A stretch of 64,000 bases of DNA from Escherichia coli (GTDB lineage: Bacteria; Pseudomonadota; Gammaproteobacteria; Enterobacterales; Enterobacteriaceae): NCBI RefSeq assembly GCF_003334305.1, contig NZ_QOWS01000001.1; one strand, 5' to 3'. Of the stretch, positions 11,525 through 18,964 are shown in pieces (within the stretch, counting starts at the first letter, position 1; the number at the start of each line of letters is the position of its first letter). Made by a program: the position numbers and the translations under genes. The notes under the pieces were generated by a model. It worked only from the letters and a program-made list of their open reading frames with translations, had not been told where the DNA came from and searched no databases.

Positions 11525-12301
11525 ATGCGAAAGATTTTTCTTCCGTTGTTACTGGTGGCACTTTCGCCTGTCGTTCACAGTGAAGGTGTGCAGGAAGTCG
11601 AGATTGACGCACCGCTCTCTGGCTGGCATCCGGCAGAGGGCGAAGATGCCAGTTTTTCACAATCGATCAATTACCCGGCGTCGTCCGTCAACATGGCAGA
11701 TGATCAAAATATCTCAGCGCAGATCCGCGGCAAAATAAAGAATTATGCTGCGGCGGGTAAAGTTCAGCAGGGCCGGCTGGTGGTCAACGGTGCCAGTATG
11801 CCGCAGAGAGTTGAATCCGATGGTTCATTTGCACGCCCTTATATTTTCACTGAAGGCAGCAACAGCGTGCAGGTCATCAGCCCGGATGGGCAAAGCCGAC
11901 AAAAAATGCAGTTTTACTCAATGCCGGGTACAGGAACGATTCGTGCACGTTTACGGCTAGTTCTCTCGTGGGATACGGACAATACCGATCTCGATCTCCA
12001 TGTTGTCACGCCCGATGGCGAACACGCCTGGTACGGTAACACCGTGCTGAAAAACAGTGGTGCACTGGATATGGATGTCACGACGGGGTACGGACCCGAG
12101 ATTTTCGCCATGCCAGCACCAGTTCACGGGCGCTATCAGGTGTATATCAACTACTATGGTGGGCGCAGCGAAACGGAATTGACGACCGCCCAACTGACGC
12201 TGATCACCGATGAAGGATCGGTCAATGAGAAACAGGAAACATTTATTGTACCGATGCGTAATGCTGGCGAGCTGACGCTGGTGAAAAGTTTTGACTGGTG
12301 A
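11525..12301 (+). CDS. yfaP: YfaP, DUF2135-family exported protein
   Basis: 258-aa ORF starting 4 nt after the yfaQ stop; signal-peptide-like N-terminus MRKIFLPLLLVALSPVVHSEG. Confidence 0.85.
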   Translation: MRKIFLPLLLVALSPVVHSEGVQEVEIDAPLSGWHPAEGEDASFSQSINYPASSVNMADDQNISAQIRGKIKNYAAAGKVQQGRLVVNGASMPQRVESDGSFARPYIFTEGSNSVQVISPDGQSRQKMQFYSMPGTGTIRARLRLVLSWDTDNTDLDLHVVTPDGEHAWYGNTVLKNSGALDMDVTTGYGPEIFAMPAPVHGRYQVYINYYGGRSETELTTAQLTLITDEGSVNEKQETFIVPMRNAGELTLVKSFDW

Positions 12302-12353
12302 TCCATCCCTTCACACAACCTGGCTCTCTCTTTTTTCAGATAAGACTGCTGGG

Positions 12354-12400
12354 CGATCTGCCGACGCCAGGATATAACCATTAACAAGCGTCGGCAGATT
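12354..12400 (+). terminator. Stem-loop downstream of yfaP (possible terminator)
   Basis: Perfect 12-bp inverted repeat ATCTGCCGACGC / GCGTCGGCAGAT with ~20-nt loop, followed by T-rich TTTCTTATTTTT. Confidence 0.35.
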
Positions 12401-12575
12401 GGTCATTTCTTATTTTTCGTACTGAGAACTGTCCATCTACTCCGGCTTTCCTGGTTAAGGCAATGGTTTCTAAGCGATACGCATTATTGCAATGGTGACA
12501 GAACATTGCGGTAACACGCTTTTACCGCTACCTTAACCACACTCCATCGGTCACCTGAGGCGGAGCTTCGCCCCT

Positions 12576-15414
12576 TTGAAATACCTTGCTTCTTTTCGTA
12601 CAACCCTGAAAGCCTCGCGCTACATGTTCAGAGCATTGGCGTTAGTGCTCTGGCTGTTGATTGCTTTTTCATCCGTTTTTTACATCGTTAATGCGTTACA
12701 TCAGCGAGAATCGGAAATTCGTCAGGAATTTAATCTGAGTTCCGATCAGGCTCAGCGCTTTATTCAACGCACCTCTGATGTGATGAAAGAGCTGAAGTAC
12801 ATCGCCGAAAATCGCTTATCGGCAGAAAACGGTGTGCTTTCCCCGCGTGGACGAGAAACGCAGGCGGATGTGCCTGCGTTTGAACCGCTGTTTGCCGACT
12901 CCGATTGTTCCGCAATGAGTAACACCTGGCGAGGTTCTCTGGAGTCATTGGCGTGGTTTATGCGCTACTGGCGCGATAATTTTTCTGCGGCTTACGATCT
13001 CAACCGGGTATTTTTAATCGGCAGTGATAACCTCTGCATGGCCAATTTCGGTCTGCGTGATATGCCAGTGGAACGCGATACCGCGTTGAAAGCTTTGCAT
13101 GAACGCATCAATAAATATCGAAATGCACCACAAGATGATAGCGGCAGTAACCTCTACTGGATCAGCGAAGGTCCGCGCCCTGGCGTCGGGTATTTTTACG
13201 CGTTGACGCCAGTTTATCTGGCGAACCGGTTGCAGGCGCTTTTGGGTGTCGAGCAGACCATCCGGATGGAGAACTTTTTCTTACCGGGTACGTTGCCGAT
13301 GGGGGTTACCATTCTTGATGAAAATGGTCATACCCTGATTTCGCTTACCGGACCAGAAAGTAAAATTAAGGGCGATCCTCGCTGGATGCAGGAACGCTCC
13401 TGGTTTGGCTATACGGAAGGGTTCCGGGAGCTGGTGCTGAAGAAAAATCTGCCACCCTCATCGCTAAGCATCGTGTATTCGGTGCCGGTTGATAAGGTGC
13501 TGGAACGCATTCGCATGTTGATCCTTAACGCAATTTTGCTGAATGTGCTTGCCGGAGCTGCATTGTTTACTCTCGCACGGATGTACGAGCGACGTATTTT
13601 CATTCCGGCGGAAAGCGACGCCCTGCGACTGGAAGAACATGAGCAGTTCAATCGCAAGATTGTCGCCTCCGCGCCAGTGGGTATCTGCATTTTGCGTACC
13701 GCTGATGGCGTCAATATTTTAAGTAACGAACTGGCGCATACCTATCTCAATATGCTTACGCATGAGGACCGCCAACGACTGACGCAAATTATCTGTGGGC
13801 AGCAGGTCAATTTTGTTGATGTCCTGACCAGCAACAATACCAATCTGCAAATCAGCTTCGTCCATTCGCGCTATCGTAATGAAAACGTGGCCATTTGTGT
13901 GCTGGTGGATGTTTCTTCGCGCGTGAAGATGGAAGAGTCGTTGCAGGAGATGGCACAAGCAGCGGAACAGGCGAGCCAGTCAAAATCGATGTTCCTTGCC
14001 ACCGTCAGTCATGAGCTGCGAACGCCGCTGTATGGCATTATCGGTAACCTGGATCTGTTGCAAACCAAAGAGTTACCGAAAGGCGTCGATCGGCTGGTGA
14101 CGGCAATGAACAACTCTTCCAGCCTGTTGTTGAAAATTATCAGCGATATTCTCGATTTCTCGAAGATTGAATCGGAACAGTTGAAGATCGAACCGCGTGA
14201 GTTTTCACCGCGTGAAGTGATGAACCACATCACCGCCAACTATTTACCGCTGGTGGTACGCAAGCAGTTAGGCTTGTACTGCTTTATTGAACCGGATGTG
14301 CCAGTGGCCTTAAATGGCGACCCGATGCGTTTACAGCAGGTCATCTCCAACCTGTTGAGTAACGCCATAAAATTCACCGATACCGGCTGTATAGTTTTGC
14401 ATGTCCGCGCTGATGGCGATTATCTCTCTATCCGTGTTCGCGATACCGGCGTGGGGATTCCGGCGAAAGAAGTGGTGCGCTTGTTTGATCCCTTCTTCCA
14501 GGTCGGAACGGGCGTACAGCGAAACTTCCAGGGGACCGGTCTGGGTCTGGCGATTTGTGAAAAACTGATCAGCATGATGGACGGCGATATCTCGGTAGAT
14601 TCAGAACCGGGAATGGGCAGCCAGTTTACCGTGCGTATTCCGTTGTACGGCGCTCAGTACCCGCAGAAAAAAGGCGTGGAAGGGTTGAGTGGTAAACGCT
14701 GCTGGCTGGCGGTCCGCAATGCGTCGCTCTGTCAGTTCCTGGAAACCAGTTTGCAGCGCAGCGGCATCGTCGTTACAACATACGAAGGGCAGGAACCGAC
14801 TCCCGAAGATGTGTTAATTACTGACGAGGTAGTGAGTAAAAAATGGCAGGGTAGAGCGGTAGTGACCTTCTGTCGTCGCCATATTGGTATTCCGCTGGAG
14901 AAAGCGCCAGGGGAGTGGGTACACAGTGTGGCTGCCCCGCATGAGCTACCGGCATTGTTGGCGCGTATTTATTTGATCGAGATGGAGAGCGACGATCCTG
15001 CTAACGCTCTGCCGTCGACGGACAAAGCGGTCAGCGATAATGACGATATGATGATTCTGGTCGTGGATGATCATCCGATTAACCGACGTCTGCTGGCAGA
15101 TCAGTTGGGATCGTTGGGCTATCAATGTAAAACCGCGAATGATGGTGTCGATGCGCTTAATGTACTTAGCAAGAATCATATTGATATCGTGCTTAGCGAC
15201 GTCAACATGCCAAATATGGATGGTTACCGCTTGACGCAACGCATTCGTCAGTTGGGACTGACGTTGCCGGTAATCGGAGTAACTGCTAATGCGTTGGCTG
15301 AAGAGAAGCAGCGGTGTCTGGAGTCCGGTATGGACAGCTGCCTGTCGAAGCCGGTAACGCTGGATGTGATAAAACAGACGCTGACGGTATATGCCGAGAG
15401 GGTCAGGAAATCGC

Positions 15415-15425
<11 letters not shown>
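12576..15425 (+). CDS. rcsC: Rcs phosphorelay hybrid sensor histidine kinase RcsC
   Basis: 949-aa ORF starting MKYLASFRTTLK on a TTG codon; contains histidine-kinase H-box (SHELRTP) and C-terminal receiver domain (VVDDHPINRR...). Confidence 0.95.
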
Positions 15426-15624: not shown

Positions 15625-16275
15625 TTAGTCTTTATCTGCCGGACTTAACGTCACAGAAGAGAGATAATTCAGCAGGGCGATATCGTTCTCGACACCCAGC
15701 TTCATCATCGCAGATTTCTTCTGGCTACTGATGGTTTTAATACTGCGGTTCAGCTTTTTAGCGATCTCGGTCACCAGGAAGCCTTCCGCAAACAGGCGCA
15801 GAACTTCACTCTCTTTTGGCGAGAGACGCTTGTCACCGTAACCACCAGCACTGATTTTTTCCAACAGGCGAGAAACGCTTTCCGGGGTAAATTTCTTCCC
15901 TTTCTGCAGCGCGGCGAGAGCTTTCGGCAGATCGGTCGGTGCACCTTGTTTCAGCACGATCCCTTCGATATCCAGATCCAATACCGCACTAAGAATCGCC
16001 GGGTTGTTGTTCATGGTCAGAACAATAATCGACAGGCTTGGGAAATGGCGCTTGATGTACTTGATTAAGGTAATGCCATCGCCGTACTTATCGCCAGGCA
16101 TGGAGAGATCGGTAATCAACACATGCGCATCCAGTTTCGGCAGGTTGTTGATCAGTGCTGTAGAGTCTTCAAATTCGCCGACAACATTCACCCACTCAAT
16201 TTGCTCAAGTGATTTGCGAATACCGAACAAGACTATCGGATGGTCATCGGCAATAATTACGTTCATATTGTTCAT
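15625..16275 (-). CDS. rcsB: Rcs phosphorelay response regulator RcsB
   Basis: Start taken at MNNMNVIIADDHPIVLFGIRK within ORF 15625-16320, giving 216 aa; receiver domain plus LuxR-type C-terminus. Confidence 0.95.
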   Translation of the reverse strand: MNNMNVIIADDHPIVLFGIRKSLEQIEWVNVVGEFEDSTALINNLPKLDAHVLITDLSMPGDKYGDGITLIKYIKRHFPSLSIIVLTMNNNPAILSAVLDLDIEGIVLKQGAPTDLPKALAALQKGKKFTPESVSRLLEKISAGGYGDKRLSPKESEVLRLFAEGFLVTEIAKKLNRSIKTISSQKKSAMMKLGVENDIALLNYLSSVTLSPADKD

Positions 16276-16291
16276 GTAATAGGCTACCTTG

Positions 16292-18964
16292 CTACAGCAA
16301 GCTCTTGACATAACTGTCAATGTCGCTGATGTATTTTTCTATTCCTGGAACATCCTTCTCACGAATCAGATGTTCCAGCGTTTCACATAACTGCTTGCCG
16401 GGTACCAGATTTAGCATGGCAAATACGCCTTTAAGACGATGAGCCGTTTGGGCTAACGCAGCAAAGTCACTGGTTGCTGCTTCAGTATACAGCCTCTTAA
16501 CATCATCCGGTACTGTGTCTACAAAGAGCGCATAATAGCCGCTGGCATGGAGTTGCGCATTTTCATCTCCGCCCAGAGGCGATTCTGTCACCTCTTCCTG
16601 CGCCAGTTGCACTTCAATTAATTGTAAGACCGCTTCCTGCATAGCGTTGCTCATATTGAAGTTGACGCACAATTGACCAGGCCCAATTTCCCGTACGCCA
16701 GACTCATCATCGCTTAAAAGCAAGCCAGAGGCAGTAAGATTAGACGGATTATCCGTTAAAAAGATATCATAATCTTGACTAATTAATCTTTCATCGGGTG
16801 TGATACAGGTTGCACCCCAATTTTCTAACTGGCGAGTGACAATATTCCGAATTTCTGCCGAAGTAACATCCACCATTACGCAGACATCATCCAGTAAACG
16901 CTCTTCTTCCTCTTCAACTTCCGGGTCAGCGGCGAGCATTTTGATATGCACAGAGTAGCGTGTACCAAGCCCATCCCGCGTTTTGATGTTTAAATGACCG
17001 CCCAGTTTACGCGCCAGTTGATCGCTCAGCCAGAATGCCAGCGGGTCCGCCTTGCCATAGCGATCGTTTTGGGTCTGGTTGATAAACGGGAAGTGCAAAT
17101 TATCCATTTCATGAATACTTACGCCTTCTCCGGTGTCCAGAATGCGGAATGTCAGGCGGTCTTCAGAGGACTCATCCTGATCAACCTCAAGGGTGATTTT
17201 TCCCAATTGCGTTGAGGTCACGGCATATTGCATCAGTAGCAGCAAAATACGTCGTAAGGCATCGCGATCGCCGCGGCGCATATCGTGTGCTTTCAGATGA
17301 TTGTTAATCAGCAGTTGCAGACCTTTACGCTTGATGGCAGGCAACACTGAAGGCACAACTTCATCAATTAAATCCTGCACGGAGAACAGCACCGTCTCAC
17401 TTTTCCAGCTATCATCCGCAAGCATGTTCGCTAACTGTATTTCATCAACCAGCCGCACCAGCACATCTGCCTGATTCGCCAGTTGTTTGCTTTCCGGGGC
17501 GTTGAGTTTAGCCGCGCTCTCCGCCAGGGACTGTGCAGGTTCTTTCAGCGCATCGCCAATGTTTTTCATAAAGGTCATCCGGCCCTGCTGGTTTTTCTCA
17601 TACAGACGCTGCGCCTGCTTGAGTTTCTTGTTTACCAGCACTTCGCGATCCTGATCGCGAATAATGAAAATTTGTGTGCGCGGCGCGACCTGGCTGCGGA
17701 ACATGCGGATCTCATACAGCTCGTTATTGATCGTCGCCTGAATAATCCCCTGATGCTGTTCCGCCATGGTGGTGATGTTTTGCAGATTCAAATGCGGCAG
17801 CAAATGATCGGCAATTTTGTTACTTATGACAGTGCGGTTCGATTCCTGATCGTGAACCAGCAGGCCGAGCGGCAGCAGTGAGACTATCTCTTCATTAATT
17901 GCCCGTAAAATGCGCAATTCGTTATTGACCGCCGTGCTGGGTAGACTTTCTGTACTGCGGCTGGAGAAATGGCGGAATGTGGTATAGCCAAATAACGCCA
18001 GCGCCAGCAAACCGATGTTCAGCAGCAGTGGCAGCAGAATGTTTTGCAACGTATCCAGCAATAAGGTGCCATAAGGAACCTGCCAGACCAGGCGCATATC
18101 GGTAGAGTTGAGTGCCGAGGAGATTTCAATCTTCGTACTGTTAAAGTGGATACTGACGCTATCCGTCCCTTCTTTCTCATTATCATTGTTTCCCGTTGCC
18201 GTCGCGTCTGGCTCAAGGCGGAAACTGTCCAGCGGCATACCCGGTGGGATCAAATCATTAATCGGCAGATCAAAAGCCACGACCGTTGCCAGATGTCCTG
18301 GCTGGTTAAAGGTAGTACGCAAGGTAAAGTAATGACCGTTCTGCCAGGCCAGGCGGCGCATGTTAGAAAAGCTTTCGCGTTCATCGAGGGCGTTGGCCTG
18401 TTGCAACATCTCTGCACGACGTGAATCAACAATGTCGCTGACGGTCGATTCTTTAAATCCGGAGGTGAGATCTTTAAGGGGTAGGGTTGAGATCAGCACC
18501 AGACTGTTATCCTGACCATTCAGGTAATACATCGACCACGGTACATTTTCTGCGCCCCACAATGTATCCAGATAAGTGGACATCCGCTGAGTCATCTCAA
18601 GCGTTGAGTTGTCGTGAGAGCCAAAGATTAACGCTTCCGTTTTGCGGCGTGGTTTCTCCAGATAGTAGACATCCTGTTTCAGGCGCGTCTCTTGTAAACC
18701 TTCGCCGGAGGAGGGGGAGGTCGTCGCGGCAATGTTGTCGTAGATCTGCCAGGTCACGTAACGCCAGTTATCGACGCGCTTTTGGATAGCATGGGTAATG
18801 TCGACAATCTGGTAACTTTTATCTTTCAGCCAGGCGTTAACGGCGCTTTGTACCATTACACCCATCGTCACCAGTAACACAATGATCAACAGTAAAAAGA
18901 AGCGGGTAATGCTCCTCGGTAGGAGTGAAAAGCGGGTCGTGGCCGTTGTCTCTTTCTGACGCAT
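16292..18964 (-). CDS. rcsD: Rcs phosphotransfer protein RcsD (YojN)
   Basis: 890-aa ORF directly upstream of rcsB on the same strand with a 16-nt gap; N-terminal membrane segment and C-terminal HPt-like region. Confidence 0.95.
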   Translation of the reverse strand: MRQKETTATTRFSLLPRSITRFFLLLIIVLLVTMGVMVQSAVNAWLKDKSYQIVDITHAIQKRVDNWRYVTWQIYDNIAATTSPSSGEGLQETRLKQDVYYLEKPRRKTEALIFGSHDNSTLEMTQRMSTYLDTLWGAENVPWSMYYLNGQDNSLVLISTLPLKDLTSGFKESTVSDIVDSRRAEMLQQANALDERESFSNMRRLAWQNGHYFTLRTTFNQPGHLATVVAFDLPINDLIPPGMPLDSFRLEPDATATGNNDNEKEGTDSVSIHFNSTKIEISSALNSTDMRLVWQVPYGTLLLDTLQNILLPLLLNIGLLALALFGYTTFRHFSSRSTESLPSTAVNNELRILRAINEEIVSLLPLGLLVHDQESNRTVISNKIADHLLPHLNLQNITTMAEQHQGIIQATINNELYEIRMFRSQVAPRTQIFIIRDQDREVLVNKKLKQAQRLYEKNQQGRMTFMKNIGDALKEPAQSLAESAAKLNAPESKQLANQADVLVRLVDEIQLANMLADDSWKSETVLFSVQDLIDEVVPSVLPAIKRKGLQLLINNHLKAHDMRRGDRDALRRILLLLMQYAVTSTQLGKITLEVDQDESSEDRLTFRILDTGEGVSIHEMDNLHFPFINQTQNDRYGKADPLAFWLSDQLARKLGGHLNIKTRDGLGTRYSVHIKMLAADPEVEEEEERLLDDVCVMVDVTSAEIRNIVTRQLENWGATCITPDERLISQDYDIFLTDNPSNLTASGLLLSDDESGVREIGPGQLCVNFNMSNAMQEAVLQLIEVQLAQEEVTESPLGGDENAQLHASGYYALFVDTVPDDVKRLYTEAATSDFAALAQTAHRLKGVFAMLNLVPGKQLCETLEHLIREKDVPGIEKYISDIDSYVKSLL

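Follow-up and report, generated by a model that had tools for sequence, protein, structure and literature searches.

Translation of rcsC in Escherichia coli starts at a UUG codon (12576-12578) and gives a product of 949 residues, and this codon, together with the AAA that follows it, is invariant in all the orthologs sampled, which span at least three Enterobacterales families, whereas the Shine-Dalgarno (SD) sequence and the synonymous sites around it drift. The start itself is the standard annotation, with peptide and Ribo-RET support, and is hence already known; the invariance of the two codons is the new element reported here. The best explanation of the available data, very probable as a whole, joins this start at UUG to a probable role of the codon as a limiter, setting the synthesis of RcsC at a low level. 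The feature is ordinary and of little importance beyond annotation hygiene, but its invariance raises the question of how tightly the dosage of RcsC must be held for Rcs signalling.

Reading frame and annotation of rcsC

The window analysed is a stretch of 64,000 nucleotides from E. coli (RefSeq assembly GCF_003334305.1, contig NZ_QOWS01000001.1), in which yfaQ, yfaP and rcsC are found in this order, rcsC lying on the + strand (Table 1). Translated from 12516, the sequence reads TLLPLP, a stop, and then PHSIGHLRRSFAP-L-KYLASFRTTLKASRYMFRAL..., the stop being followed by the rcsC frame. The 13 codons separating the TAA from the TTG include no ATG, GTG or TTG and only two near-cognates, ATC at 12546 and CTG at 12555, and the TTG is the first canonical start downstream of the in-frame stop. 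The initial annotation had the rcsC frame opening at this TTG, with the first in-frame ATG 16 codons downstream (12624-12626) and an N-terminus given as MKYLASFRTTLK. The translated frame matches this N-terminus and confirms the position of the ATG, and the opening at TTG is borne out by the 949-codon reading frame, by the RefSeq start and by the NCBIfam alignment.

The RefSeq record NZ_AP018808.1 matches the query with 100% identity, and its rcsC CDS (2850 nt, WP_000876007.1) begins at locus position 1777, which corresponds to 12576 in the window. The 949-residue product scores 1841.6 bits against the RcsC equivalog model of NCBIfam (NF008099, cut-off 920), a value showing that this reading frame is not due to chance. 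Residues 1-948 align to profile positions 1-948 of 949; the alignment thus starts at the first residue, meaning that the curated family model takes in the 16 disputed residues. By inspection, residues 20-41 are hydrophobic and lie behind this 16-residue basic tail.

Table 1. Location in the window of the rcsC features and of the elements preceding them
Feature	Position	Strand	Basis
rcsC coding sequence, 949 codons plus stop	12576..15425	+	ORF listing, NCBIfam NF008099, RefSeq name
TTG (UUG) initiation codon of rcsC, read as Met	12576..12578	+	RefSeq CDS start; TTG in 171/171
TAA, in-frame upstream bound of the rcsC ORF	12534..12536	+	ORF listing and translation
rcsC codon 2, AAA (Lys), third base also invariant	12579..12581	+	0 changes, 171 sequences
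rcsC codons 2-16, KYLASFRTTLKASRY, basic N-terminal tail omitted by the old Met17 annotation	12579..12623	+	codon conservation
ATG, rcsC codon 17 (Met17), internal codon rather than start	12624..12626	+	comparative and anti-SD
Shine-Dalgarno-like GAGGCGGAG (GAGG 12557-12560, GGAG 12562-12565)	12557..12565	+	10 nt from GGAG to TTG
Conserved block, possible weak promoter: TTGCGG (12506-12511), 17 nt, TACCTT (12529-12534)	12506..12534	+	comparative

Published evidence on the start site

The TRAINSPOTTER study (Nucleic Acids Res 2026, PMC13245402) applied deformylation-assisted N-terminomics to an E. coli K-12 tolC strain and confirmed a total of 10 TTG database start sites. Row 477 of its Table S1 describes b2218 rcsC (UniProt P0DMC5, 949 aa) as a dbTIS with start codon TTG, on the basis of the N-terminal peptide MKYLASFR, covering residues 1-8 with M as first residue, and adds "Ribo-RET (BL21)" support and the elongation evidence "REPARATION" (PMC13245402). 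The 60-nt context provided in this row, ATCGGTCACCTGAGGCGGAGCTTCGCCCCTTTGAAATACC..., is the same as window positions 12546-12605, and its SD scoring reports two SD cores with a best spacing of 11 (PMC13245402). N-terminal proteomics and ribosome profiling with initiation inhibitors had been put forward in the initial annotation as means to check the start, and published data of both kinds are thus at hand, the former with a peptide arising from the TTG and the latter with Ribo-RET support at the same codon. A Met17 N-terminal peptide of RcsC is absent among the Table S1 rows listed, where b2218 occupies a single row (PMC13245402). Annotation, family model, published experiments and the comparative data presented below therefore agree on a start at TTG and not at Met17.

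A literature search associating rcsC with TTG or UUG retrieved no paper on the start codon of rcsC, the UUG matches concerning Yersinia rcsD, and no paper was found discussing the order-wide invariance of the rcsC TTG. A genome announcement of 2023 still gives 933 amino acids for the rcsC product of MG1655. As 933 equals 949 minus 16, this figure presumably reflects an older annotation in which ATG 12624 was used as start. The data confirm the gene model in which RcsC has 949 residues and starts at TTG, and the Met17 version of 933 residues, which still appears in places, should be abandoned.

Conservation of the TTG start codon among Enterobacterales

Orthologs were collected by searching proteins with residues 1-300 of RcsC. 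The N-terminus MKYL[AV]SFRTTLK[VI]SRYLFRAL is kept in Salmonella, Klebsiella, Kluyvera, Erwinia, Pantoea and Sodalis, with mostly Leu at residue 17, and K2, Y3, S6, T10, S14, R15 and Y16 are invariant over 21 RcsC orthologs. The corresponding DNA was gathered from three sources: 80 species-representative Enterobacteriaceae genomes, which make 82 loci with two E. coli records; seven distant or named orthologs obtained by exact-protein look-up, including Erwinia, Pantoea, Sodalis praecaptivus and Salmonella; and 107 metagenome stretches retrieved with a degenerate DNA pattern on codons 2-19, blind to codon 1. The homologous start codon is TTG in all 82 loci, in the seven distant orthologs and in the 107 metagenome matches, the pattern used for the latter demanding Ile13 and Leu17 and thereby leaving the most divergent orthologs outside the sample.

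Codon 17 displays a very different distribution. Among the 82 loci it is ATG in only nine, all from Escherichia and the Superficieibacter clade and two of them being the E. coli records; elsewhere it encodes Leu (CTG, CTT, TTA, CTC or CTA, 72 loci) or Phe (TTT, one locus), so that most genera have no Met17 to start from. Over 87 sequences, codons 2-16 carry the signature of a translated segment, with first and second positions conserved at 0.8-1.0 and third positions at 0.29-0.90, whereas the 60 nt preceding the TTG present no three-base periodicity, the coding signature beginning at codon 1. In several orthologs the TTG is preceded at a distance of only 1-7 codons by an in-frame stop, and the interval contains no other start. 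An upstream near-cognate start, at CTG 12555 or ATC 12546, was considered and ruled out on account of these close stops and of the lack of upstream coding periodicity.

After removal of duplicates, 171 distinct sequences covering nucleotides 1-234 of the CDS were retained, and changes were counted by Fitch parsimony on a neighbour-joining tree. TTG is the start codon in all of them, with 0, 0 and 0 changes at its three positions. By comparison, the Fitch minimum over the same sequences ranges from 13 to 26 changes at the four strictly four-fold sites (mean 21) and averages 26 over all third positions, and the invariant Leu11 and Leu21 are written with six and five synonymous codons, respectively. 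Were TTG, ATG and GTG interchangeable, around 14 switches to ATG or GTG, be they transient or lasting, would be predicted (two-thirds of about 21 changes) and none is seen. The neutral expectation used here comes from just four strictly four-fold sites, and the tree was inferred from the very 234 nt that were scored. The second codon behaves as the first one, the third base of AAA being the only degenerate third position without variation in codons 2-78. Within E. coli, a 601-nt stretch around the rcsC start has a match of at least 95% identity in 5423 of 5426 complete genomes; 5410 of these 5423 are identical from -30 to +31 of the start, and a search for ATG or GTG in an otherwise identical start context gave no perfect match among the 5423.

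The invariance of the TTG argues for selection on the identity of the codon. Since AAA is equally invariant, the constrained unit appears to be TTGAAA, and the AAA may have a role of its own in the initiation context.

Shine-Dalgarno sequence and structure of the leader

According to Belinky et al., AUG is in general the start codon favoured by selection, and genes with a sub-optimal start tend to compensate for it with a stronger SD. The anti-SD duplex was computed for 112 distinct contexts upstream of the rcsC TTG. The Escherichia-type context of GAGGCGGAG, computed on a locus (L003) that has the same 25 upstream nt as the window, provides the strongest duplex of the whole set with -7.6 kcal/mol, for a median of -3.1 and a weakest value of -1.5 kcal/mol. 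The GGAG leader motif, whose GGA lies at 12562-12564 in the E. coli SD, is present in 34 of the 112 contexts. The SD of rcsC is thus not conserved, and its sub-optimal TTG is not compensated as a general rule. Upstream of ATG 12624, the anti-SD duplex amounts to -0.1 kcal/mol.

Folding of 12516-12635 gave -18.2 kcal/mol (z = +0.81 relative to shuffled sequences), indicating no stable RNA structure at the start, and an Rfam search of 12250-12750 at E <= 1 returned no match. Two candidate hairpins were dropped, one formed by GGCGGAGCTTCGCC, whose stem is disrupted without compensation by the Klebsiella-type and Kosakonia-type variants, and one located at 12508-12528 in E. coli, whose left arm is not conserved.

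Region upstream of rcsC

The conserved TTGCGG/TACCTT block ends 41 nt before the TTG. Its pattern, TTGC[GA]N, 17 nt, TA[CT]C[TC]T, is shared by 69 distinct upstream regions, including 63 of the 83 genome-derived ones, with a spacer that is always of 17 nt. A scan with the sigma-70 consensus found no promoter upstream of rcsC, the block remaining below threshold, and the literature searched on the promoter and transcription start of rcsC yielded only unrelated "PrCSC" papers. Judging from its conservation, the block may be a weak rcsC promoter. Within its 17-nt spacer, TTTACCGC is strongly conserved.

The neighbourhood of rcsC differs among E. coli genomes. In the window, the ato operon is absent from 11525-12500 and yfaP, ending at 12301, is directly upstream of rcsC. 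In 3881 of the 5423 genomes, K-12-type included, no match reaches 80% coverage of the 601-nt query; among the matches listed for these genomes, similarity does not start before about 12497-12500, and atoS is divergent from rcsC in the K-12-type record inspected. The two upstream arrangements share only about 78 nt before the TTG. A 14-codon upstream reading frame, MVTEHCGNTLLPLP (ATG 12492 to TAA 12536), shares the frame of rcsC and stops 39 nt before the TTG. It is probably non-functional and was not retained as a conserved feature, since the segment shared with the K-12-type genomes does not reach its ATG.

Other observations on Rcs and two-component genes

Some laboratory lineages of K-12 have an rcsC that is split into two places or carries a pseudogene annotation (NZ_CP084898.2 and NZ_CP045457.1). 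In the genome-reduced strain DGF-298, the IS2 that split rcsC in the reference genome was reported to have been deleted, restoring an intact gene. Concerning rcsB (15625-16320, - strand), an internal alternative start, AAG, figures in row 476 of the TRAINSPOTTER table with the peptide MRLSPKESEVLR; it yields a C-terminal proteoform of 68 residues, for which the row gives no Ribo-seq support (PMC13245402). The longest reading frame of the rcsB locus opens at a TTG and has 231 codons; the start of the 216-residue RcsB is located downstream of this TTG. A TTG start has also been described for the response-regulator gene sirA (uvrY) of Salmonella, a second two-component gene with this feature.

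A possible low set-point of RcsC synthesis

In E. coli, the ribosome is placed by the GAGG/GGAG SD 10-11 nt upstream of the start, on an unstructured leader and in front of an AAA second codon, and the initiator tRNA decodes the UUG at 12576-12578 as Met, leading to a 949-residue hybrid sensor kinase whose first 16 residues (MKYLASFRTTLKASRY) form a basic tail before a presumed first membrane span (residues 20-41). Initiation at UUG would usually be several-fold below that at AUG, and in most lineages the SD is weak as well. The UUG would then probably act as a fixed low set-point of RcsC synthesis, maintained by selection across Enterobacterales because the amount of this kinase/phosphatase would set the basal output of the Rcs system. 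A TTG associated with a weak SD in most lineages is what would be expected if low output were the selected state. The initial annotation regarded the weak start as a possible translational control point. By analogy with genes in which start codons have been exchanged, we infer that the UUG keeps RcsC scarce. A static limiter appears likelier than a switch, since IF3 treats UUG as canonical, which favours a fixed set-point over a regulated one.

Published values for the cost of a UUG start are spread over a wide range. UUG, GUG and AUG give 1:2:6 in cyaA, whose UUG is conserved in Enterobacterales, and replacement by GUG or UUG causes a two- to three-fold drop in lacZ. In the reporter series of Hecht et al. 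(preprint), UUG yields anywhere from 10 to 100% of AUG, and with an optimised initiation region in vitro, between 20 and 40 C, a UUG mRNA behaves like an AUG mRNA. This in vitro parity, the wide reporter range and the fairly strong SD of E. coli count against a function of limiter. As for the amount of RcsC, it is 1.3-1.9-fold higher in a csrB csrC mutant of Salmonella, a post-transcriptional modulation for which a putative CsrA site in the rcsC leader was advanced as a proposal only. In Salmonella, RcsB activity depends on how much RcsC is present, and an rcsC mutant has a higher RcsB activity in low osmolarity, credited by the authors to the phosphatase activity of RcsC. The dosage of RcsC plausibly matters.

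A stronger formulation, which we consider possible though somewhat short of probable, holds that the UUG and the invariant AAA form together a selected governor of RcsC expression, unchanged across Enterobacterales, and that an AUG at this place would cost fitness. If true, an AUG would lead to an excess of the bifunctional RcsC and displace the basal set-point of the envelope-stress response governed by Rcs; in a bolder version, the UUG would couple RcsC synthesis to the state of the translation apparatus. The contrast between an invariant TTG and a freely drifting SD provides a neat natural case of selection favouring a sub-optimal start codon in a signalling protein.

Alternative explanations

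The invariance of the TTG could be unrelated to low expression, and due either to an overlapping DNA or RNA signal at TTGAAA or to a condition-dependent response of UUG to nutrient state, ppGpp, initiation-factor levels or CsrA. We consider this unlikely, while giving it more weight than the other alternatives. An AAA as invariant as the TTG itself is consistent with an overlapping signal, against which stand the lack of an Rfam family and of a stable structure around the start (z = +0.81). A conditional response would agree with the different behaviour of non-AUG starts under nutrient limitation and ppGpp in vitro, and with the effect of CsrB/CsrC on RcsC amounts in Salmonella, where the putative CsrA leader site was proposed; the GGAG motif is found in only 34 of 112 contexts, as opposed to a universal TTG, which would speak against this reading.

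Initiation in Escherichia might also be dual, taking place mostly at UUG and to some extent at the ATG of codon 17, which would produce a minor isoform deprived of the basic tail. The presence of an ATG 16 codons past a sub-optimal start in Escherichia and the Superficieibacter clade would allow it, and TRAINSPOTTER describes proteoforms with a short N-terminal truncation as common in E. coli (PMC13245402). Dual initiation is nevertheless very improbable, as no SD precedes this ATG and a Leu (CTG) to Met substitution explains its presence more simply; in addition, no such b2218 site figures among the TRAINSPOTTER rows listed, a proteomic absence that is by nature weak evidence (PMC13245402).

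A protein starting exclusively at ATG 12624, with 933 residues and the first 16 codons as an untranslated leader, would be in line with ATG being the commonest start codon and with the length quoted in 2023, but has practically no chance of being correct considering the Leu or Phe at codon 17 in 73 of the 82 loci, the protein-coding conservation across codons 2-16, the lack of SD before this ATG (-0.1 kcal/mol), the choice of TTG by both RefSeq and NCBIfam, and the reported N-terminal peptide MKYLASFR (PMC13245402).

Comparison with known systems

The earlier 933-residue annotation of RcsC concerns the same gene and the same frame, and differs from the current RefSeq, UniProt P0DMC5 and NCBIfam entries, which use the TTG and 949 residues. 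Among genes with a comparable start, rpsT encodes the ribosomal protein S20, is highly expressed and is under autogenous translational control. Both rpsT and rcsC belong to the 10 TTG starts confirmed by a peptide in TRAINSPOTTER, with Ribo-RET support (PMC13245402). The likeness is limited to the start, since the rcsC product is a membrane kinase that is presumably scarce, and the literature examined reports no autoregulation for it.

The AUU start of infC, through which IF3 autoregulates its own synthesis, similarly represents a non-AUG start used on a regulatory gene as a translational control point. It belongs to the AUU, AUC and AUA starts, is non-canonical and is discriminated against by IF3, whereas the start codon of rcsC is UUG, which is canonical to IF3, and the infC mechanism is therefore not transferable to rcsC.

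The closest likeness is with cyaA (adenylate cyclase), also a regulatory or signalling gene with a UUG conserved in Enterobacterales, thought to hold its synthesis low. The effect of exchanging the start codon was measured in cyaA, while a limiter role in rcsC would follow by extension, and the conservation of the rcsC codon in 171 of 171 sequences comes from our own tally and not from a published table. Like that of cyaA, the UUG of rcsC is conserved; in rcsC, the neutral sites around it turn over.
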